The position numbers and the translations under genes are program-made. The notes beneath the pieces are model-generated. The model did not search any database, had not been told where the DNA came from, and saw nothing but the letters and a program-made list of their open reading frames with translations. A stretch of 64,000 nt of DNA from NCBI RefSeq assembly GCF_003018235.1, contig NZ_CP027437.1. One strand, written 5' to 3'. The DNA is from Escherichia coli. Its GTDB lineage: Bacteria > Pseudomonadota > Gammaproteobacteria > Enterobacterales > Enterobacteriaceae. Shown here piece after piece: positions 578-52,744 of the stretch; position 1 is the first letter of the stretch; every line of letters starts with the position of its first letter.

Positions 578-1159
<582 letters not shown>

Positions 1160-1198: not shown

Positions 1199-1263
1199 TC
1201 CCGGCGTAACCCGGATTTGCCGCTTATACTTGTGGCAAATGGACACGTTCAGGGAGGCATCAA

Positions 1264-1431
1264 GTGAAGAAACTCACCGATAAGCAAAAGTCCCGTCTCT
1301 GGGAGCTTCAGCGTAATCGTAATTTCCAGGCCAGTCGCCGTCTTGAAGGCGTCGAGATGCCTTTAGTCACTCTTACTGCCGCAGAGGCTTTAGCGCGCCT
1401 TGAAGAGCTGAGGAGGCACTATGAGCGATAA
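1264..1431 (+). CDS. yhfG: YhfG, small protein encoded upstream of and overlapping fic
   Basis: GTG-initiated 55-codon frame ([20 protein letters not shown]...) ending TAA at 1429-1431, overlapping the fic start; too short for the ORF track. Confidence 0.7.
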
Positions 1432-2023
1432 ATTCGGCGAAGGGCGCGATCCGTATCTTTATCCTGGCCTTGATATCATGCGTAACCGGCTGAACATCCG
1501 CCAGCAACAGCGGCTGGAACAGGCCGCTTACGAAATGACGGCGCTGCGTGCTGCGACCATTGAGCTTGGTCCGCTGGTGCGCGGTTTACCGCATTTGCGC
1601 ACTATCCATCGCCAGCTGTATCAGGATATTTTCGACTGGGCGGGGCAATTGCGTGAAGTTGATATTTATCAGGGCGATACGCCGTTCTGCCACTTTGCCT
1701 ATATCGAAAAAGAGGGCAATGCCCTGATGCAGGATCTGGAGGAAGAAGGTTATCTGGTTGGCCTGGAGAAAGAGAAGTTCGTCGAGCGGCTGGCACATTA
1801 CTATTGTGAAATCAACGTGCTGCATCCCTTCCGTGTGGGAAGCGGACTGGCACAGCGGATCTTCTTCGAGCAGCTGGCGATTCATGCGGGCTACCAACTG
1901 AGCTGGCAGGGTATCGAAAAAGAGGCCTGGAATCAGGCAAATCAGAGTGGGGCAATGGGGGATCTCACCGCACTGCAGATGATATTTAGCAAAGTGGTAA
2001 GCGAAGCCGGGGAATCTGAGTAA
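1421..2023 (+). CDS. fic: Fic family protein
   Basis: 200-aa ORF with Fic-like motif [12 protein letters not shown] at residues 135-146. Confidence 0.9.
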
Positions 2024-2054: not shown

Positions 2055-2618
2055 ATGATCCTGCTTATAGATAACTACGATTCTTTTACCTGGAACCTCT
2101 ACCAGTACTTTTGTGAACTGGGGGCGAATGTGCTGATTAAGCGCAACGATGCGTTGACGCTGGCGGATATCGACGCCCTTAAACCACAAAAAATTGTCAT
2201 CTCACCCGGACCCTGTACGCCAGATGAAGCCGGGATCTCGCTTGACGTTATTCGCCACTATGCCGGGCGCTTGCCGATTCTTGGCGTTTGCCTCGGTCAT
2301 CAGGCAATGGCACAGGCATTTGGCGGCAAAGTTGTGCGCGCAGCAAAGGTCATGCACGGCAAAACCTCGCCGATTACACATAGCGGTGAGGGCGTATTTC
2401 GGGGGCTGGCAAATCCACTTACCGTGACACGCTACCATTCGCTGGTGGTGGAACCTGACTCATTACCAGCGTGCTTTGAAGTGACGGCCTGGAGCGAAAC
2501 CCGCGAGATTATGGGGATTCGCCATCGCCAGTGGGATCTGGAAGGTGTGCAGTTCCACCCGGAAAGTATTCTCAGCGAACAAGGACATCAACTGCTGGCT
2601 AATTTCCTGCATCGCTGA
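2055..2618 (+). CDS. pabA: Aminodeoxychorismate synthase component II (glutamine amidotransferase)
   Basis: 187-aa ORF with class I GATase motifs (GVCLGHQ). Confidence 0.95.
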
Positions 2619-2688: not shown

Positions 2689-3924
<1,236 letters not shown>

Positions 3925-29773: not shown

Positions 29774-29777
<4 letters not shown>

Positions 29778-30940
29778 TTCCCTGAGCTCCTTACTGTCCA
29801 TACGCCACTGACCGGATCTTTTTCTGTTTTTTCCATCGGAAGCCAGGGCTGTGCTAATTCACAGAAACGATCGATATTGGCTTCACTCTTAGCACTCATT
29901 TTTAAGGTCAGCGACTTTTGCTTCTGGCTATAGTTCGCCTCCATTAACTGCAGTTCAGGGTGTTCCAGCAGAAGTGTTTGTAAATGATAGAGCAACGGCA
30001 CAGCTTCAGGATATTGCTGAGCGAGTTGCTGCTTAAAGTAAAAACGAAAGTTGTGGGTGCGTTTGATTTGCGGGAAATAACGTTGCCAGGTTTCTTGCTG
30101 TTGTTGCTGAAGTTGATCTTCAATCTTAAGCGTTTGCCAGAGCGCGATGCCCCGGCTGCCAACAAAAGAAAGAATGGCGAGAACGAGACAGCTTACTGCC
30201 AGGCGGGCGAGCCATTTTCCCGATTTGCTTACAGTTTTCTGTTTACGAAAAACACCATGCAGCATGTCATAGCGCTGGAATGCAATATCGGCAGAATACA
30301 AACTCAGTGATGGTATTTCAGGATGCTGGATAAGTGGATTGGTCGCTGCAACGCCGTGAGGTGCTACACCATAACAAAGCATATTCTCAGGCGGAAACTG
30401 GGCAGCAAGATGCTGTAACCAGTGTTCATCCAGTTCATTGAAGGCATGTGCGGCACTGCGAATAAGCCAGCTTGTTTGCTGGTTAACCAGAGTCCAGCTA
30501 TCTCCTTCCCAGGGAAGATAGCAGCCATCTGGCAAAACCCGCGTCACGTTGAGTCCGGCAGTATGTAAACGCTCAAGATAGCGACTGAGTTTCTCCGACT
30601 GAATGCCTATCACCTCGACACTTTCGTTTTGTTTATCGACAACCGTCCAGTGCCAGTCCTGGGTGTTATCGGGTAACGTCTCCTCTGCCAGCCATTGCAA
30701 TGTTTGTGCGGTGAGTTTGTATTTGACGTTGGGCAGCGTGAGGGAACGATATAAAAGGCCCTCTGGTGGGATCAAAAGATGAACATTTCCGGCACCGGGC
30801 TGATCGGCCAGCGACTCCAGCGGAAGATCGTCTGTGAGCGTATGTACCGAAGATACGCTATCTGCGGAGAACGTCATCCATTCCCAATGCTTACGCAGCG
30901 TCGAGGAAGAACGTATGACCATCAACGATTCAGGCATCAC
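29774..30940 (-). CDS. gspL: Type II secretion system protein L
   Basis: 388-aa ORF in conserved gsp order. Confidence 0.9.
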
Positions 30941-30951
30941 GATCCTTATGA

Positions 30952-31935
30952 TTAGTAGAGTTGCAGCGTACGCCGATAGATTTGGGCGCTCTGTTGTTTA
31001 CGGTTGAAAAAAATATGGCTTTGCCATCCCAGGGATTGTTCGTCGCTGATACTTTCCGTACTCAGCGTAAAATAGCGGCTATAGGGAAAGAGATGCCCTT
31101 TCACCTGAGCTACCAGAGGCTTCACGCCGGAGAAATCCTGCTGCGCCCAGTAAAGAAATGCATCCGTGGTTAGCCAGCCTTCCCTCGGCCTTTTTTGCAA
31201 TAAGACCCGAGCGTCAGCATCCGTGATGTTATTGAGGAATAACGCTCTGAAGAGCGGAATATCGTTCTCCGTTAGCATATTAAGATTGATGCTAAGTTCC
31301 GTGGTCGGGAGAACGCAGACATACGGGATAAGCCGCTGATAGATGTTTTCGGTTATGCCTTTTATCTGACGCAATTCGCCGGTCAGAAAAAGCATCTGAT
31401 TGGCACTATGCCGGGGCGGCGTCTGGCTTTGGTAAAAGTTATCTTCTGCGCCGTGAAAGCGTGGTGAGTCATCGACATCAATATAGTCAGCGATTGATTG
31501 CACGATCTCATCGGTGTTTCCGCGATCGATACCGGCGTTAATCAGCAGCGCACTGAATACCTGGGCGGGGAAATCAGGGGAAGCCAGCGGGTCGTCAGAG
31601 ATTTTTGCTAACGCATTGAGATTAAAACAGTGCTGGGCATCGCGTAACTGCCACTTCACTGTATTGCCATTTTCCAGCTGCAACTGTTGCGGTTGTGCCC
31701 AGTACTGCTGCAACGTGGTTTGTCTGTCGTTATCTTTAACGTCCTGGGCGAGGCTGGCAAGCGCAAGTTTCTCCGCCAGTTCAATATCATATTGCCGTTG
31801 CAAATGATGGTTTACCTGGCGGGTTCGCTGAAGCTGGCTGTGAAAACTGAGCGTCATGTCTGCTGCCAGAGCAGCCATGAGCGCCAGTAACATGAGTACA
31901 ATGAGCAGCGCGACGCCGCGTTGTTCATTATTCAT
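30952..31935 (-). CDS. gspK: Type II secretion system minor pseudopilin K
   Basis: 327-aa ORF in conserved gsp order. Confidence 0.9.
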   Translation of the reverse strand: MNNEQRGVALLIVLMLLALMAALAADMTLSFHSQLQRTRQVNHHLQRQYDIELAEKLALASLAQDVKDNDRQTTLQQYWAQPQQLQLENGNTVKWQLRDAQHCFNLNALAKISDDPLASPDFPAQVFSALLINAGIDRGNTDEIVQSIADYIDVDDSPRFHGAEDNFYQSQTPPRHSANQMLFLTGELRQIKGITENIYQRLIPYVCVLPTTELSINLNMLTENDIPLFRALFLNNITDADARVLLQKRPREGWLTTDAFLYWAQQDFSGVKPLVAQVKGHLFPYSRYFTLSTESISDEQSLGWQSHIFFNRKQQSAQIYRRTLQLY

Positions 31936-32515
31936 GGTTATTATTCCCGGCCTGCGTCTGAGCTGGCGACTCTTCTCTCGCTAACTGCTCAGGTAATGCA
32001 AAACGGCGCTGTAACACCCCATATTGCTGAGTCTGCAGATGTAACGTGACTGAGAGAGGAAGTTCCTGGCTTTCCCCGCTGTTACTTTCCAGAAGAAAGC
32101 TCTCGACATGTTCCAGCATCGCCTGGGCGGGTTGATCCTTCCTGCCATCCACAGAAGTACGAACAGCACGGTAGAGCGTATGATTTCGTAGATACCAGTG
32201 AACTGTGAGTAAGGTTTGTGCTTCACTGAGAGGAGCCAGCGGATCACGACTTTGCGTGGTAAAAATAGCTTCTTCACCCAACACCATGATCTTGTCCGTA
32301 CTCCGATTCCTCCGGGCGACCAATTGCAGGAGATCGTTATCAAGAATGGTGATGGTGCGCTGTAGCTGATTGAACTGCTGGATTTCTTTCTGTGAGCGTT
32401 GATGTAGCGTAGACGCTTGCGAAAAAACCATAAACGCCAGCACGCCAAGCATTGAGAAGATCGCCAGCGCCGCCATGACTTCCAGCAATGTGAAACCCTG
32501 TTGGCGATTAATCAT
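31928..32515 (-). CDS. gspJ: Type II secretion system minor pseudopilin J
   Basis: Prepilin-type N-terminus [13 protein letters not shown]; track ORF extends 8 codons upstream to 32539. Confidence 0.88.
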
Positions 32516-32885
32516 CTTGCGCCTGCCCGGATCTATCATGGATGCTCTGATAACGAGTCAGAGCAGTTTTCTGACCGTTGGGTAACATCACCGTTATGGT
32601 GCGTTCCAGAAGCGTGCCGTCTTTGCTTGAATGGACATCGCTGCGCCAGTTCCACTCTTCGCCATTAATTATCTCTTTGCCTGAACTGGACGTGTTTTCA
32701 TCGTTGAATGTATCTTGCGACTTAAGCTGGTTATCTGCGATCCACAGCGCCAGCGTCTCATTACGCATCCGCTCGATGGCATTTCGTTGCCCTTGCATGC
32801 TGCTCATTAAAGCCAGCGCAACAGTGGCGAAAATACTCATCGCCAGTAAGACTTCAAGCAGTGTCATCCCTGATTGTTTGTTCAT
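32508..32885 (-). CDS. gspI: Type II secretion system minor pseudopilin I
   Basis: Prepilin-type N-terminus [12 protein letters not shown]; track ORF extends upstream to 32924. Confidence 0.88.
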
Positions 32886-33391
32886 GGGCGGGTATCTCTG
32901 ACGAGCGTTTGATCCAGGGGCCATGATCCTGAACAGACTAACGTCAGGAGCGGCTCACCGGTCCCGGCGTTAGCCATCAACAAAGAGAAGGGCGTGATTT
33001 GTCCGTCGGCCAGAACCACCACCTGCGGTTGGTTGCTGTCATCAGGTTTAAATGGCTGAAGTTGAATTGAGAGTTCTTCACCCCAGTCATTTTTGCTCTC
33101 GTCTGCGGCATCTTCTTGTAATGGAACCCAGCGCCAGGCTGATGGTGTTTTGCCCGGTACCATAATGCGCCATGCTGAATCAGAGAAATGGATACCGACA
33201 GGCTGACCACTGAGCGTGGCGCGGTCGATGGCTAATTCAAGTGCAGCGGTAAACCGCGCCGCTGTTTCGCGCGCACGAGTGCTGGCGGTATCTTCCCGAC
33301 CATATGTGAAGAGCACCACACTTGCCGTGATAGCGACCAGCGCCAGCACCAGCATCATCTCCAGCAGGGTAAACCCGCGTTGCTGATTCAT
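32882..33391 (-). CDS. gspH: Type II secretion system minor pseudopilin H
   Basis: 169-aa ORF with [13 protein letters not shown] prepilin N-terminus. Confidence 0.9.
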
Positions 33392-33398
33392 CGCTGAC

Positions 33399-33836
33399 TT
33401 ACTTTTTCTTCTTGCTCAAACCCCAGTTGGTGATGTCATCCTCGGTTCCCATTTCACCATCGGGTCCTGCTGAAAGCAGATCGTATGCACCATGTTCACC
33501 AGGATTAACGAGGACATAATCATTGCCCCAGGGATCGGCAGGCAGACGCTTGATATAACCTTCCTTGTTATAGTTTGCGGCCAGCGGTGGCAGTGTCGGC
33601 GCTTCTACTAAGGATTCAAGCCCCTGATTTGTGGTTGGATAGCGATGATTGTCGAGCTTGTACATATCCAGGGCGTTTTCCAGCGCCACAATATCGCTGA
33701 CGGCTTTTTGTTTATCCGCCTTTTCTTTATTGCCCATCAGGTTGGGAACCACCAGGCTGGCGAGTACGCCAATGATGACAATTACCACCATAATTTCCAG
33801 TAATGTAAAACCGCGTTGCTTATCCGTTGCGCGCAT
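33399..33836 (-). CDS. gspG: Type II secretion system major pseudopilin G
   Basis: 145-aa ORF with [13 protein letters not shown] prepilin N-terminus. Confidence 0.93.
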   Translation of the reverse strand: MRATDKQRGFTLLEIMVVIVIIGVLASLVVPNLMGNKEKADKQKAVSDIVALENALDMYKLDNHRYPTTNQGLESLVEAPTLPPLAANYNKEGYIKRLPADPWGNDYVLVNPGEHGAYDLLSAGPDGEMGTEDDITNWGLSKKKK

Positions 33837-33845
33837 ATGATTTCC

Positions 33846-35042
33846 TTAATTAATCATTGAGTTAAGTTGAAGAAGAGGTTGGAGTACCGACACGACAATA
33901 AACAGGACGATCAGTGCCATCGTAATAATGAGTGCTGGCTCGAAGATGGAGAGCGTTAAGGCGATCCGATTTTGTTGGAGTGTCTCCTGGTTATCTGCGG
34001 CTCTGACCATTAACGTGCCGAGTTGCCCGCTTTTTTCGCCAGAGGCCACCATGTAGAGCATCATCGGCGGGAAAATTGCGGTTTGTTCCAGCGAAAGATG
34101 AATGCTGTTACCCTGCCGAACGTTTTCTGCCGCATTTGCCAGACGCTGGCGGATTTCGAGGTTGCTGAGACTTTCGGTGGACAAATTCATCCCATCCAGC
34201 AGAGGGACGCCGCTGGATTGCAAAATACTTAAAGTGCGGAGATAGCGTGCGCTGTTAATGGCGCAAATCAGCGGGCCGATGAGTGCAACGCGCAGCAACA
34301 TGGCATGAAAACGGTGGCGGTTATTGCCGCGTTTTAACCAGAGCCAGAAACCTACAGCGACAATAAACACTGTCGCTAGTAATGTCGGGCCGGTACGTTG
34401 CAACGTGTCGCTCAGACCTAAAAGAATGCGTGTACTCAGCGGCAGTTGCTGCTTCATATGCACGAACTGTTCGGTAATTTTGGGCACGACAGCAGTGAGG
34501 AGAATAATCACGACCACAATCGCCACCGCAGTCAGCATGCAGGGGTAGATCAGCGACTGAATGAGCTTGCTGCGGATTTTCTGCCGGTTTTCATTGTAAT
34601 CAGCCAGCTTTTCCAACACCGGGGCCAGCAGCCCGCTCTTTTCGCCCGCTTTAACCAGGGTACGATAGAGCGAATCGAAAAGCGTGGGAAAATGTTGTAA
34701 CGCATCGGAAAGGGGATGCCCTTCAAGGATGGCGCTGCGTACCTGATTTAACACATCAGCCAGTCGTTTATTACTGCTTTGTTGACCGATTACGGCAAGG
34801 CTCTCTTCCAGAGGTAATGCCGCTGCGCTTAAGGTTGCCAACTGCCGGGTGAAAAGCGTCAGTTCACTATGGCTGATCCTCGGGCGACGTGTTTTTACTC
34901 CCGAACTTTTTTGGGGGCGAATATCCAGCAGGAAAAGCCCTTCTTCACGCAGCCGCAGTCGTGCCTGACGTTCATCGTTAGCATCAATGATCCCTTGCAA
35001 TTTTTGACCATCCTGGGTCATGGCGCGATAGCGATAATTCAT
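33846..35042 (-). CDS. gspF: Type II secretion system inner-membrane platform protein F
   Basis: 398-aa polytopic ORF. Confidence 0.93.
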
Positions 35043-36520
35043 GCTTCGCTCTCCAGCGTGGCACTGGCGACGCGCATAACCTCATCCCAGGAGGTGTCAC
35101 CGCTTATCACTTTTTGCAGGCCATTTTTGATTAAGGCATTGTGTTGTTGCCGGACTAGTCGCTCCAGTGTTTGTTCATCCACATTTTCATGAATAGCGGC
35201 CCGCAATTCCGGCGTCACCACCATCATTTCGTGGATCGCCATGCGCCCCTGATAGCCGGATTGATGGCAATGAGGGCAGCCTACGGGAGTGCCAATTGCT
35301 GTCACCGCGAGCTGATGATATTTAAACATCTGCGCTTGTTGGGGTGATACGGGCGTGAATTGTCGGCATTGCGGACACAGGCGACGAACCAGACGTTGCG
35401 CGATAATCCCTGCCAGTGAAGACGAAAGCAGGAATGATTCGACGCCCATGTCGCGTAGCCGGGTGACTGCGCCTGATGCACTGTTGGTGTGGAGTGTTGA
35501 GAGCACCAGATGGCCGGTGAGCGAGGCCTGAACCGCAATTTGCGCGGTTTCTGTATCACGAATCTCCCCCACCATGACGACATCCGGGTCCTGGCGAAGT
35601 ATGGCGCGCAGGCCGCGAGCGAAAGACATATCGACGCGGGTATTCACCTGCGTTTGTCCTATGCCTTCCAGTTCATATTCCACGGGATCTTCTATCGTCA
35701 GAATATTACGGCCAGGGGTATTAAGCGCCGAAAGAATGGCGTAGAGCGTGGTGCTTTTACCGGAGCCTGTCGGCCCTGTCACCAGGATAATACCGTGCGG
35801 AAGCTGAATGAGATTTTCTAAATCCTGCTTATCCGCTGCCGTCATCCCCAGGTTGTTCAATGAAAGCTGGAGGCTGTTTTTATCCAGCAGGCGGAGCACG
35901 GCACGTTCACCATAGATGAACGGCAGTGTGGATACGCGGACATCTATGTTACGTCGCCCGATACGCAAACTAATTCTTCCATCCTGTGGAATACGTTTTT
36001 CGGCGATATCAAGACGAGCCATGACCTTAATTCGGGAGATAAGCAGTGCCGCCAGTTTTTTGTTTGGCTGTAAAATTGTCCGCAAAACGCCGTCGATGCG
36101 AAAACGGATCGACATTGTTTTTTCATAGGTTTCAATGTGGATATCGGAGGCGGTTTCTTTGATGGCCTCACTCAAAATCGCATTGATCAAGCGGATAACG
36201 GGTGCCGCTGAATCTTCATTCAGCAGATCTTCATTTGCGGGCATCTCTTCCGAAAGCGAGAGAAGATCGACGGATTGATCGATATCCTGCGCAATCTGTT
36301 GTGACTCACCGGTATTCTGATGGAATACCGCTTCCAGTCGGGCTTCAAAATCAGCCTGTGACAAGCTGGTCATGGTCTGGCACTGGCCAACCTGACGTTG
36401 AATATCGAGTAACCGTTCGAATGGCGTATCGGCGAGATAAATAATCTCGCCCTCTGAATAGAGATAGCCAATTCGCTGTGCCAGCGCCCAACTGGCGGGG
36501 TACGGTGAGTGAATTCTCAT
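35039..36520 (-). CDS. gspE: Type II secretion system ATPase E
   Basis: 493-aa ORF with Walker [10 protein letters not shown] and CxxC...CxxC zinc motif. Confidence 0.95.
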
Positions 36521-36529
36521 AAGAATGCC

Positions 36530-38482
36530 TTACCGTGCCGATGGCGCAGGGGGATGGCTGTTGAACGTGTTCTCATCCAGCACCGGCAAATCTTCCGAGC
36601 CTACCAGCGCTTTTGATTTCCCGTCGATCCGCTGTTGTTGCTCCTGGCGGTAGCGGGTGTATTTCTCTTTTGACAACGAGCGATAAACATCATCGTCACG
36701 GATAATCGTCGGACGGATAAATACCATCAGGTTGCGTTTAGCGCGCTCGGTCGAGGTATAGCGGAAGAGTTGCCCCACTAAAGGAATATCGCCAAGCAGA
36801 GGAACCTTTGACACTTGCTCTTTAGAAAAATCATCCAGCAATCCGCCCAGGACCACCGTTTCACCGGTTTTAACCAGCACGGCGTTTTGAATAGTACGGG
36901 TATTAAACGTCGGGCCGAGCGTCGAATTAGACGAAGAGTCAACGCTGGAGACTTCCTGCTCTATTTCGAGCAACACCGCGTCGCCTTCATTGACCTGCGG
37001 AGTGACTTTGAGTTTTGTGCCCACCGTTTTGCGTTCGACGGTATTAAAGACGTTATCGCCTGAAGTGGTCTGTGACCCGGATAGCACCGGCACATCCTGG
37101 CCAACGTTGAAGGACGCGAGTTTATTATCCAGCGTTACGATGCTTGGGGTGGCGAGGATGTCATTTTTATTGTTACTGGCCAGCGCAGTCAACAATACGC
37201 CCCAGTCGCCATTGAAGAAGCCTGCGGCCATGCCATTGTAGGCGCTAAACATATCCCAGGCAGGATTCGCGCTGGTGATCCCACCATTCTTTTTATAATC
37301 AGCCACACCTTGCGCAGCGTTAAAAATCGGTAATCCGGTATTGGTAAATTGCTGTGCGCCAACGTTTTTATTCGCCCATTGCACGCCGAGGTTAAGTCCA
37401 TTTCCATCCTGAACTTCAACGATAATTGCCTCAACCAGCACCTGTGCACGGCGAATGTCCAGACGCGCAATTACCGTGGCGAGTTTTTCCTGGACGGACT
37501 GGTCAGCGGTAATGACCAGAGAGTTAGTCTGTTCATCGGCGGTAATGGCGACGTTATCCATCGCGCCAGAAGAGGAGGGCTTACGCTCATTCCCTTTTTC
37601 ATCTTTCAGCTTTTCGGAAACACCGGTTAGCACTTCCACCAGATTCGTGGCTTTAGCATATTTCAGGTAATAGACCCGGGTATTTCCTTCCTCGCTCTCT
37701 TCTACATCAAGGCTTTTCAGTAATGAAGCGATGCGCTGGCGTGCTTTTTCCGGCCCGCTGATGATAAGAGAGTTGGTTCGCTTATCCGCCACAATCTTCG
37801 CGGAGAGGAGGGCTGGCATCTGGCTTTTACCGTGGCTTTCGCTGATTAATTGATTAAGAATCTCGGCGAGATCTTCCGCTGACGCATATTCCAGATGAAT
37901 AATTTGCTGCTTCTCTGTGCCGATGACATCAACGCGCTTTATGACTTCAATCAGTTTATTAATGGTGGAGGCACGACCGGTCAGAATAAGAACGTTGGAG
38001 GGTTCATAATGCACAACATTACCGACGCTACCCGCATCCATCATCTGGCGCAGCAGGGGAGCCAGGTCACGAGCAGGAACGTTCTCAAGCGGTACGATTC
38101 GGGTGACCAATTCATCACCAGCGCCAGGACGAGAACTATCAGCAATCATCCCTGGCGATGTTTTTACATTAGCTGAGCGCACCACTTTCAGAAAACCATT
38201 GTCCAGCGTGATCACGGAATAACCGTAAAGATCAAGAATACTTAAAAAGAACTGGTAGTACTCCTGTTGGCTAAACGTATCATTACTGCGTACGGAAATG
38301 GTTCCCTGTACCGAAGGGTCGATCAGGATCGTTTTGCCAAGATGCTGACCCACTATTTCCACGAACTGGCGGATATCGGCGTTATTGAAGTTAGCGCCGT
38401 ATTGTTCGTTCTCAGCGTGCCCTGCACAAGGCATGAGTAGTGCTGCCAGCAAGCAGCAGGTGATTTTATTGAGTCCTTTCAT
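36530..38482 (-). CDS. gspD: Type II secretion system outer-membrane secretin D
   Basis: Secretin ORF with signal peptide; ATG at 38480-38482 (MKGLNK...) gives 650 aa, an alternative ATG at 38494 gives 654 aa. Confidence 0.93.
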
Positions 38483-39281
38483 GACGCTGTCCATTCATTC
38501 CTGTAAGTTCCGCGACGGAAACATTTATCAAGCGGGGTACGCCGTTGCGACGAATTGTAAACTGAGCACTTTGTTGAGTTAGCAGTAAACTTAATGCCTG
38601 TGAAACCTCATCAGGGTGGGTCAGCGAAAGATTATTGATCCTGAGGGCGATATCCCCTGGTTGTAGCAAGCTGGTGGTAAATGCATTGAGGCCCTTACGA
38701 GGGTTCAATCGAAGCCCGTATATCTGTTCTCCATCACGTATAGGCGTGGCGATAATATAATCAGCGAGTACATTTTGACTTTCCGAATCAGGCTGCTTGA
38801 TGATGTCAGGTAGCCCTGGATGGAGAGTTACTTTTTCGTAATGTCCGTGAGTTTCAAACACAACGCTGGTTTTATTTATTTTTCTAATAAACGTTCCTGG
38901 CGCTGACTCAAGGGCTTCGTTGAGGGAGTATCGCTTTTGTTCGCTCCCCTCATTAATTAAGACAAAAGAAGTCTCATCATTCGATGTGAGTACAATGCCA
39001 TTAAGCGCTATAGAGAGCTTCGGTGTTTCCTGATTAACTGCCACGGGATTTGCATCTTTTACCCCAGCATGATTTTCGTTACGCCATAAAGCGGCAAGGC
39101 TGAACTCAGACTGAAATGCGTTTGTTGGTTGATTAATGATCTGTCCATTTTTAACTATAGTTGTATGGAAATAATTCACATTAAAAATAATCAACCCTAT
39201 GCTTATAAATATAATCAATATATTGATGGCAGCATCTTTATTATGATTCGCCAGATGGAAGGGGAAACGTAGTGTGGGCAC
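38466..39281 (-). CDS. gspC: Type II secretion system protein C
   Basis: 271-aa ORF, first gene of the minus-strand gsp operon. Confidence 0.9.
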
Positions 39282-39460
39282 GATGTATGTTCTAATAAAA
39301 TAGATTGGGTGGGTTGTATATTGACGTTAGTATAAATAGTATTAATGCCGCTTGCATGAATCAAGCAAAATTTATTTATATTAGTAATATGTATTTAATT
39401 AATAAATGCATACATTATTTTTATGATTAAGGATAATCAATAATTAAAACAGGAAGTTCT

Positions 39461-40930
39461 ATGTCTACGAGAAGAGAAGTTATTCTTTCCTGGTTGCGTG
39501 AGAAACGTCAGACCTGGCGTCTGTGCTATTTGTTGGGTGAGGCTGGAAGTGGAAAAACCTGGTTGGCGCAGCAACTACAAAAAGATAAACATCGCCGTGT
39601 GATTACTTTAAGCCTCGTTGTTTCCTGGCAAGGTAAGGCCGCATGGATCGTTACCGACGATAACGCGGCTAAACAGGGCTGCCGTGACAGCGCCTGGACG
39701 CGAGATGAGATGGCGGGGCAATTACTGCATGCGCTTCATCGAACTGATAGTCGCTGCCCTCTTATTATTATTGAAAATGCTCACCTGAATCACCGCCGCA
39801 TACTTGATGATCTCCAACGCGCGATATCTCTTATTCCTGACGGTCAATTTTTGCTGATCGGCAGACCCGATCGAAAAGTCGAACGTGATTTTAAAAAACA
39901 GGGCATTGAACTTGTCTCGACAGGACGTCTGACGGAGCACGAACTTAAGGCAAGCATCCTTGAAGGTCAGAATATTGACCAACCCGATCTCCTTTTAACC
40001 GCCAGAGTTCTGAAACGGATAGCTTTATTATGTCGGGGCGATCGCAGAAAGCTGGCGCTTGCCGGCGAAACAATTCGCTTATTACAGCAAGCCGAGCAGA
40101 CCAGCGTTTTCACAGCAAAACAATGGCGAATGATTTACCGCATATTGGGTGATAACCGCCCCCGGAAAATGCAGCTTGCCGTGGTGATGAGTGGAACCAT
40201 TATCGCTCTTACCTGTGGTTGGCTACTGCTGTCCTCTTTTACAGCTCCGCTACCCGTTCCTGCGTGGCTGATACCCGTAACGCCAGTAGTTAAACAAGAT
40301 ATGACTAAGGATATTGCTCATGTGGTGATGCGCGATAGTGAGGCGCTAAGCGTGTTATACGGCGTATGGGGGTACGAGGTCCCAGCCGATTCGGCCTGGT
40401 GCGATCAGGCAGTAAGAGCGGGGCTGGCATGTAAAAGTGGGAATGCTTCTTTACAAACATTGGTAGATCAGAATTTGCCCTGGATCGCATCGCTTAAAGT
40501 CGGGGACAAAAAATTGCCTGTTGTGGTCGTTCGCGTCGGTGAGGCTACCGTTGATGTCCTCGTAGATCAGCAAACCTGGACTCTGACACATAAATGGTTT
40601 GAGTCGGTATGGACGGGTGATTATCTTCTGTTGTGGAAAATGTCGCCGGAAGGGGAGAGTACCATTACGCGTGATAGCAGCGAGGAAGAGATTCTCTGGC
40701 TGGAAACGATGTTAAACCGTGCATTGCATATTTCGACAGAACCTTCGGCGGAGTGGCGTCCCTTGTTGGTAGAAAAAATAAAGCAATTTCAAAAAAGCCA
40801 CCACTTGAAAACTGACGGTGTTGTTGGCTTTTCAACGTTAGTACATCTCTGGCAGGTGGCAGGGGAGAGTGCCTACTTATATCGGGATGAAGCAAATATT
40901 TCCCCGGAAACAACAGTGAAGGGGAAATGA
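39461..40930 (+). CDS. gspA: Type II secretion accessory ATPase-like protein GspA
   Basis: 489-aa ORF with Walker A GEAGSGKT, divergent from gspC. Confidence 0.88.
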   Translation: MSTRREVILSWLREKRQTWRLCYLLGEAGSGKTWLAQQLQKDKHRRVITLSLVVSWQGKAAWIVTDDNAAKQGCRDSAWTRDEMAGQLLHALHRTDSRCPLIIIENAHLNHRRILDDLQRAISLIPDGQFLLIGRPDRKVERDFKKQGIELVSTGRLTEHELKASILEGQNIDQPDLLLTARVLKRIALLCRGDRRKLALAGETIRLLQQAEQTSVFTAKQWRMIYRILGDNRPRKMQLAVVMSGTIIALTCGWLLLSSFTAPLPVPAWLIPVTPVVKQDMTKDIAHVVMRDSEALSVLYGVWGYEVPADSAWCDQAVRAGLACKSGNASLQTLVDQNLPWIASLKVGDKKLPVVVVRVGEATVDVLVDQQTWTLTHKWFESVWTGDYLLLWKMSPEGESTITRDSSEEEILWLETMLNRALHISTEPSAEWRPLLVEKIKQFQKSHHLKTDGVVGFSTLVHLWQVAGESAYLYRDEANISPETTVKGK

Positions 40931-52288: not shown

Positions 52289-52378
52289 AGCCAGCCAATC
52301 TTTTGTATGTCTGTGCGTTTCCATTTGAGTATCCTGAAAACGGGCTTTTCAGCATGGAACGTACATATTAAATAGTAG

Positions 52379-52744
<366 letters not shown>

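Follow-up and report, generated by a model that had tools for sequence, protein, structure and literature searches.

Escherichia coli Fic (EcFicT) is the founding and name-giving member of the Fic family, and its discovery dates back to the early 1980s. The degenerate motif of the fic product has already been described, together with crystal structures, in 2016 (PMC5033356). The complex of EcFicT with its small partner EcFicA was solved by Stanger, Harms, Dehio and Schirmer (PLoS One 2016; PDB 5JFF and 5JFZ; PMC5033356), who termed the motif of EcFicT a “somewhat degenerated signature motif”. The most relevant change is the replacement of the first arginine (R1) by Leu; in addition, the Mg-binding acid has given way to a hydrophobic residue, and about half of the close homologues have Ser for Asn (Stanger et al., 2016; PMC5033356). 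Neither auto- nor target-adenylylation could be observed for EcFicT, also after mutation of the inhibitory Glu (EcFicA E28G), and the lost adenylylation was ascribed chiefly to Leu at R1 and the hydrophobic residue at the D/E position. The structure is consistent with an absence of ATP binding, with the adenine pocket and the anion nest sterically intact, and an Arg at R1 would collide with Y67 (PMC5033356). Furthermore, the crystal contains a salt bridge between EcFicA E28 and EcFicT R146, as in VbhTA, and a conserved hydrophobic groove formed by A36, T40, Y67, F71 and V139. Surface patches remote from the active site are conserved; flap and surface patches are subgroup-specific, which was read as a new target range, and the fold was proposed to be reshaped for “a yet unidentified substrate” (PMC5033356). 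The same study described vertical inheritance of EcFicTA between ppiA and pabA in Enterobacteriaceae, and its introduction states that a fic knock-out is viable and behaves like the wild type, whereas fic-1 acts like a gain-of-function allele (PMC5033356). A 2024 review mentions that ectopic EcFicT strongly inhibits the growth of E. coli (PMC10886550), which fits poorly with the lack of activity and the wild-type knock-out given in the structural report (PMC5033356). In a paper of June 2026, the mechanism of EcFicT is still called “elusive” (PMC13327609).

This 2026 paper deals with a canonical relative, the Fic-1/AntF pair, whose Fic-1 matches 5JFF in overall fold with an RMSD of 0.9 A (PMC13327609). 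AMPylation by Fic-1 was abolished by E139A and by R143A. The Fic-1-AntF complex deAMPylates AMP-GyrB, and this reverse reaction needs a divalent metal, Fic His135 and antitoxin Glu28; AntF E28G abolished deAMPylation (PMC13327609). That altered Fic signatures can redirect the chemistry is known from Doc (phosphorylation) and AnkX (phosphocholination; introduction of PMC5033356).

We analyzed one contiguous stretch of 64,000 nucleotides, in the following called the window, whose beginning carries the yhfG-fic pair in the following arrangement:

587-1159, plus strand: ppiA, an open reading frame at the start of the window
1252-1257, plus strand: GGGAGG, preceding the GTG start of yhfG
1264-1431, plus strand: yhfG (ecficA), encoding a class I Fic antitoxin homologue (alpha-inh protein) of 55 amino acids, with a GTG start
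1333-1350, plus strand: codons of S24-R-R-L-E28-G29, the antitoxin inhibitory motif [S/T]xxxE[G/N]
1412-1416, plus strand: GGAGG, the Shine-Dalgarno sequence for fic, inside the yhfG coding sequence and 4 nt upstream of the fic ATG
1420-1431, plus strand: the junction TATGAGCGATAA, with the fic ATG at 1421 and the yhfG stop codon TAA at 1429-1431, an overlap of 11 nt
1421-2023, plus strand: fic (ecficT), encoding a class I FIC-domain protein of 200 amino acids
1583-1585, plus strand: the G55 codon, site of the fic-1 mutation, wild type in the window allele
1823-1858, plus strand: the degenerate Fic signature, residues 135-146, with the nucleotide sequence CATCCCTTCCGTGTGGGAAGCGGACTGGCACAGCGG
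2055-2618, plus strand: pabA, for aminodeoxychorismate synthase component 2, located downstream of fic at a distance of 31 nt, from open reading frame and annotation
2704-3924, plus strand: argD, an open reading frame on the same strand as ppiA, yhfG, fic and pabA
opposite strand to fic: yhfK, from the list of open reading frames

The identity of both proteins is clear from profile and structure searches. The Fic protein of the window matches Pfam Fic (PF02661) over residues 58-152 with E=5.9e-14 and 53.1 bits (cutoff 24), and YhfG matches Pfam YhfG (PF10832) with E=1.6e-24. The best PDB match of the Fic protein is 5JFZ_A (E=2e-133), and 5JFF_A also reaches E about 1e-133; both chains carry the PDB name “Probable adenosine monophosphate-protein transferase fic”. 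YhfG matches 5JFF_B and 5JFZ_B over all 55 residues with E about 1e-30. The crystal constructs of 5JFF and 5JFZ contain tags, S2G and the engineered changes G55R or E28G; the window allele is wild type at Fic G55 and at YhfG E28. Natural differences from K-12 are limited to H27R and A118E in Fic (the window carries R27 and E118) and to S51R in YhfG (R51 in the window). Judged by its sequence, the locus is the core-genome pair ecficA(yhfG)-ecficT(fic) of E. coli with a wild-type fic allele at the fic-1 site. The altered motif is consequently a rediscovery of a feature already on record for a core E. coli gene, and the RefSeq name of EcFicT, “putative adenosine monophosphate-protein transferase Fic”, is probably wrong for the EcFicT subgroup.

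The closest genome match is E. coli N3 with 99.9% DNA identity, in which yhfG, fic and pabA are annotated. The locus is present in 5425 of the 5426 complete E. coli genomes, chromosomally and with a median of one copy, and only 1/5426 is without any match; fic is intact in 5423/5426. Positions 1200-2060 of the window are matched at >=99% identity by 202 of the 5425 genomes, most of the others being 95-99% identical, and as so few genomes reach >=99% the window stems from a minority lineage of E. coli. In the genome of E. coli MS 21-1 (NZ_CP146670.1), a single piece covers only 53% of the yhfG-fic query, and there is a second place in the same record, which suggests that fic is interrupted there, possibly by an insertion element. 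We rejected the matches to “plasmids” in PLSDB (H13-H16) as evidence for mobility: three of them are E. coli records of 4.8-4.9 Mb and presumably chromosomes, and these PLSDB records are probably mislabelled or contaminants. The fourth, an 11.3-kb “plasmid” of Klebsiella oxytoca (NZ_CP069919.1), carries a yhfG-fic that resembles the E. coli sequence, with 99.5% protein identity to the Fic protein of the window.

The gene order tsgA-ppiA-yhfG-fic-pabA-argD-yhfK is common to the three genera compared, Salmonella, Klebsiella and Leclercia. In their loci the 11-nt overlap of yhfG and fic is kept, as is the antitoxin motif in the form SR[RL]LEG, and the junction AGGAG[GT]CACTATGAGCGATAA is found in four genera, with the internal Shine-Dalgarno sequence included. 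The preliminary description of this DNA had stated that yhfG overlaps the start of fic and that both form a two-gene module. The overlap is confirmed by the position of the ATG at 1421 within yhfG, and the module by the identity of YhfG with the class I antitoxin EcFicA, which was co-crystallised with Fic, and by the persistence of the overlap across genera. From this geometry we infer that yhfG and fic would be expressed together via the 11-nt overlap and the internal Shine-Dalgarno sequence, in the manner of translational coupling.

A terminator scan of positions 1100-2800 found no terminator-like site on the plus strand in the interval between fic and pabA. The scan of the same region revealed no sigma-70-like promoter, and its two minus-strand terminator-like matches are at chance level. 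The conserved neighbour pabA is probably co-transcribed with fic. A GC-rich inverted repeat, GCGCGGGCAA-tc-TTGCCCGCGC, is located at 1169-1190, 10 nt past the ppiA stop codon, and is followed by TTCTGCTCT; because its T-run is weak, the repeat was not flagged by the terminator scan. It is probably the ppiA terminator, and in this case yhfG-fic(-pabA) would be a separate transcription unit. An older claim that fic affects PABA/folate synthesis carries no weight as evidence here, and a search of the literature yielded no relevant paper on a functional link between fic and pabA or folate.

An Rfam scan gave no match near the yhfG-fic locus; the sole gathering-level match in the 64 kb is Alpha_RBS (RF00140) at 52309-52420 on the plus strand with 102.7 bits. 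The window, which does not contain tRNA genes, presumably runs from ppiA into a ribosomal-protein operon region, as we assume from the gene order of E. coli. Its G+C minimum lies at 38001-40000 (0.441 vs about 0.50-0.55 elsewhere). We take this segment to be the end of a minus-strand block of open reading frames at 29774-39281, which by size and gene order are probably the gsp type II secretion genes.

The central point of the preliminary description was a non-canonical Fic motif at 1823-1858 (residues 135-146), in which the acidic residue, the Asn and the first Arg of the canonical HxFx[D/E]GNGR1xxR2 are replaced by V, S and L. Both the translation and an HMMER alignment bear this out. H135, F137, G140, G142 and R146 (R2) are kept and R138 occupies the R0 position, whereas the Mg2+ ligand is changed from E to V139, N to S141 and R1 to L143. 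In the alignment with Fic proteins of solved structure, the motifs HPFREGNGRAQR of Fic-1 (8WT0) and HPFREGNGRTLR of VbhT (3ZCB) fall exactly on the columns of residues 135-146. The three changes are therefore true substitutions, and the comparison with characterised Fic proteins which the preliminary description had called for leaves them standing. A canonical motif elsewhere in the protein would have spoken against the claim, and we looked for one: the pattern H.F.[DE]GNGR..R matches nothing in the 200 amino acids, and the sole H-x-F is at residue 135. Thus, the window protein does not carry the canonical signature of an adenylylation-competent Fic protein. The three replaced residues are those that handle the ATP beta-phosphate and Mg2+ in AMP-transferases; His135, Phe137, the anion-binding nest of Gly140 and Gly142, Arg146 and the Fic fold are retained.

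To place this motif in the family, we used a close and a distant set of homologues. The close set consists of 120 cluster representatives with at least 80% identity, of which 114 are full-length (80-99% identity). Throughout the 120 representatives the motif reads HPFR[LIVF]G[SN]G[LMI]AQR, with the exception of four single-cluster variants. Across genera, 90 of the 200 positions are invariant in the 114 full-length sequences, among them D10, Y12, T40, G55, Y67, F71, E79 and Y83 as well as H135, P136, F137, G140, G142, Q145 and R146 of the motif region. Variation at the altered positions is restricted to L/I/V/F at 139, S/N at 141 and L/M/I at 143. For the distant set, 1.84 billion cluster representatives were searched exhaustively, with 5263 matches at E<=0.001. 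Here the canonical motif occurs in 113 of the 126 best matches with a readable motif, which are relatives at <=50% identity. Canonical relatives have E36, F67 and Y71, whereas the EcFicT group has A36, Y67 and F71, which reproduces the published co-variation with R1. A canonical relative with 40% identity has a YhfG-family partner too, but in an unrelated context beside a HigB-like toxin.

Two deviating homologues were set aside. The first (P0129, motif YFFCFGNGLIQC) is located at the ppiA-pabA site and lacks the catalytic His, which could be taken as a sign of dispensable catalysis. It is encoded on a contig of the Logan assembly SRR18107612 with almost no C, a bisulfite-converted read assembly in which nearly every C is read as T; for this reason the relative was rejected as an artefact. 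This contig yields a spurious “Fic” of 212 amino acids with H to Y and R to C changes in the motif, and such artefacts sit in protein collections as cluster representatives. The other homologue (P0122) has an “intermediate” motif, HPFFVGSGRAQR. We do not rely on it, as its source is a single 2.7-kb Logan contig, the called product of which combines Pfam matches to YhfG and Fic, and a frameshift or an assembly error is possible.

Selection on the pair was estimated against the orthologues from Salmonella, Klebsiella and Leclercia. The dN/dS values are 0.05-0.09 for fic and 0.045-0.09 for yhfG, compared with 0.06-0.08 for pabA and 0.02-0.03 for ppiA in the same genera; these values are approximate because synonymous sites are saturated (pS 0.6-0.7). 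Even with this approximation, purifying selection on fic and yhfG is unmistakable. The ecficA-ecficT pair descends by vertical inheritance from a class I FicTA toxin-antitoxin pair and has become fixed at the site between ppiA and pabA.

Taken together, the data support the view that EcFicT is a selected, repurposed enzyme or scaffold within a domesticated and functionally constrained module. In the reading that we consider probable, EcFicT is not an AMP-transferase, yet it would be catalytically alive and act on a phosphate-bearing ligand that is not ATP, with YhfG as its regulator or partner. EcFicT would be held in a tight complex with YhfG and would perform His135-dependent chemistry on this phosphate-containing ligand, which may be seated in the subgroup-specific hydrophobic groove of A36, T40, Y67, F71 and V139. 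The ligand could be a different donor substrate, in line with the proposal of Stanger et al., or an already-modified protein. As the knock-out is viable and wild-type (PMC5033356), any such activity is dispensable in the laboratory. The preliminary description had considered canonical AMPylation unlikely and had left the choice between another activity and an inactive protein. The first part agrees with what has been published for the 99%-identical K-12 protein (PMC5033356); with respect to the choice, a catalytically inactive relic is less likely, because all 114 sequences keep the His, the Gly-x-Gly nest and R2 unchanged and fic shows a dN/dS of 0.05-0.09. A residual AMP-transferase, which would use ATP or another NTP under conditions or on targets so far untried, is already largely refuted and very improbable. 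The RefSeq name still points in this direction, as do the sterically intact adenine pocket and anion nest (PMC5033356) and the growth inhibition by ectopic EcFicT stated in the review (PMC10886550). However, Fic-1 loses AMPylation when either R1 or the Mg-binding acid is replaced (PMC13327609), the structural report gives no auto- or target-adenylylation of EcFicT, and the structure itself argues against ATP binding (PMC5033356). As an Arg in this place would run into Y67, the loss of R1 is structurally entrenched. A reading of the degenerate motif as the sign of a toxin that decays into a pseudogene is refuted by the selection data. Canonical residues are indeed lost, a disrupted yhfG was reported for E. 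albertii TW07627 (PMC5033356), and fic of E. coli MS 21-1 appears to be interrupted. Against this, fic is intact in nearly all complete E. coli genomes, its dN/dS equals that of pabA, 90 positions are invariant across genera, and the seemingly His-less relative is a product of bisulfite sequencing; motif conservation, invariant positions, dN/dS and synteny together rule the pseudogene out.

Two further explanations deserve more attention, although we regard both as unlikely. EcFicT-EcFicA might be a catalytically dead binding or regulatory module, in which the Fic fold and a target dock are kept for a partner. This would agree with the lack of detected activity also after mutation of the inhibitory Glu, with the loss of three ATP and Mg ligands, with the knock-out without phenotype next to fic-1 as a gain of function, and with the conservation of surface patches remote from the active site (PMC5033356). 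The conservation of His135 and Arg146 could reflect structural or antitoxin-binding roles and not catalysis. A pseudoenzyme has, however, to account for the invariance of His135, the Gly-x-Gly nest, R2, antitoxin Glu28 and T40/Y67/F71 despite saturated synonymous divergence, and a strict retention of the general base and the anion nest is unexpected for a mere scaffold. The other explanation, to which we give a rather low probability, is derived by analogy from Fic-1/AntF: the EcFicT-EcFicA complex might be an eraser-only deAMPylase of GyrB, ParE or similar targets that other enzymes, for instance incoming canonical FicT toxins, have AMPylated, acting via His135 and Glu28 after loss of the ATP-dependent forward reaction. 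EcFicT keeps H135 and R146, YhfG keeps S24 and E28, and the changed positions include exactly 139 and 143, the AMPylation residues of Fic-1. The match between the kept and lost residues of EcFicT and the 2026 split of AMPylation and deAMPylation in a close relative is the new point of our analysis. AMP-Tyr as a substrate lacks the beta- and the gamma-phosphate, so that an enzyme acting on it would do without R1 and the Mg ligand, and the adenine pocket was reported to be present (PMC5033356). With such an eraser, it would also be understandable that strong purifying selection preserves a tightly bound antitoxin Glu on a Fic that is not toxic. Mobile DNA often carries potential writers, as Fic homologues were found on 915 plasmid records, of which 663 are conjugative or mobilizable. 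If this were true, EcFicTA could shield Enterobacteriaceae from canonical FicT toxins of plasmids or secretion systems, and vertical inheritance, non-toxicity and purifying selection on an “antitoxin” without a toxin to inhibit would be explained at once. On the other hand, an eraser role of EcFicT was not proposed in the 2026 paper, and the literature searched contained neither a link between EcFicT and deAMPylation nor data on AMP removal by EcFicTA. Besides E139, EcFicT also lacks E29 (Q) and E36 (A) of an acidic patch that is important according to PMC13327609, and the acidic ligand of the motif is absent while deAMPylation by Fic-1-AntF needs a divalent metal. Furthermore, the subgroup-specific flap and surface patches were read by Stanger et al. 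as a new target range (PMC5033356), and the invariant hydrophobic groove is left unexplained by an eraser.

Among the described Fic systems, Doc has Lys at the position of the second Gly (HxFxDANKR), and R1 is retained in AnkX. With Gly142 and Leu143, the motif of the window protein fits neither variant; Gly142 is invariant among the close homologues, which speaks against a Doc-type kinase, and neither Doc/Phd of phage P1 nor AnkX of Legionella is among the PDB matches of the window Fic protein at E<=1e-3. The pair also lacks the mobility of a mobile type II toxin-antitoxin system, since it occupies a fixed chromosomal site in 5425/5426 E. coli genomes that is syntenic in three genera. Its class I FicTA character is evident from the small upstream protein with the [S/T]xxxE[G/N] motif (S24-R-R-L-E28-G29 in YhfG), and the Glu-R2 salt bridge of class I complexes is assigned because the window proteins are about 99% identical to the chains crystallised together in 5JFF_A/B and 5JFZ_A/B.

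Within class I, VbhT/VbhA of Bartonella schoenbuchensis (3SHG, 3ZC7, 3ZCB; E=3.6e-33) shares the DPY N-terminal segment and the salt bridge between the antitoxin Glu and R2, but VbhT is a canonical, plasmid-borne AMP-transferase of GyrB/ParE and VbhA has three helices, compared with two in EcFicA. Fic-1/AntF of Pseudomonas bijieensis 2P24 (8WT0) is, like the window pair, a class I Fic with a small upstream antitoxin, and Fic-1 is the closest canonical solved relative, with E=1.2e-48 and a gap-free alignment over residues 1-196. Because the alignment is gap-free, the numbering of H135, R146, S24 and E28 is shared between both systems. The residues requisite in Fic-1-AntF and a stable complex are found here as well, with H135 invariant, E28 kept in four genera and the complex crystallised. 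However, Fic-1 carries the canonical HPFREGNGRAQR, AMPylates Y111 of GyrB, acts as a toxin and forms a complex with deAMPylating activity, whereas the window protein has V139, S141, L143, Q29 and A36. The closest system is EcFicT/EcFicA of K-12 (UniProt P20605), which is about 99% identical and shares the Fic motif, SRRLEG, the ppiA-yhfG-fic-pabA context and the 11-nt overlap. With hydrophobic residues at R1 and D/E (L143 and V139), with the specificity positions A36, T40, Y67, F71, E79, Y83, A178 and M179, which are invariant or nearly so in the 114 sequences, and with its location between ppiA and pabA, the window protein belongs to the published EcFicT-like subgroup 3 of Stanger et al. (2016).
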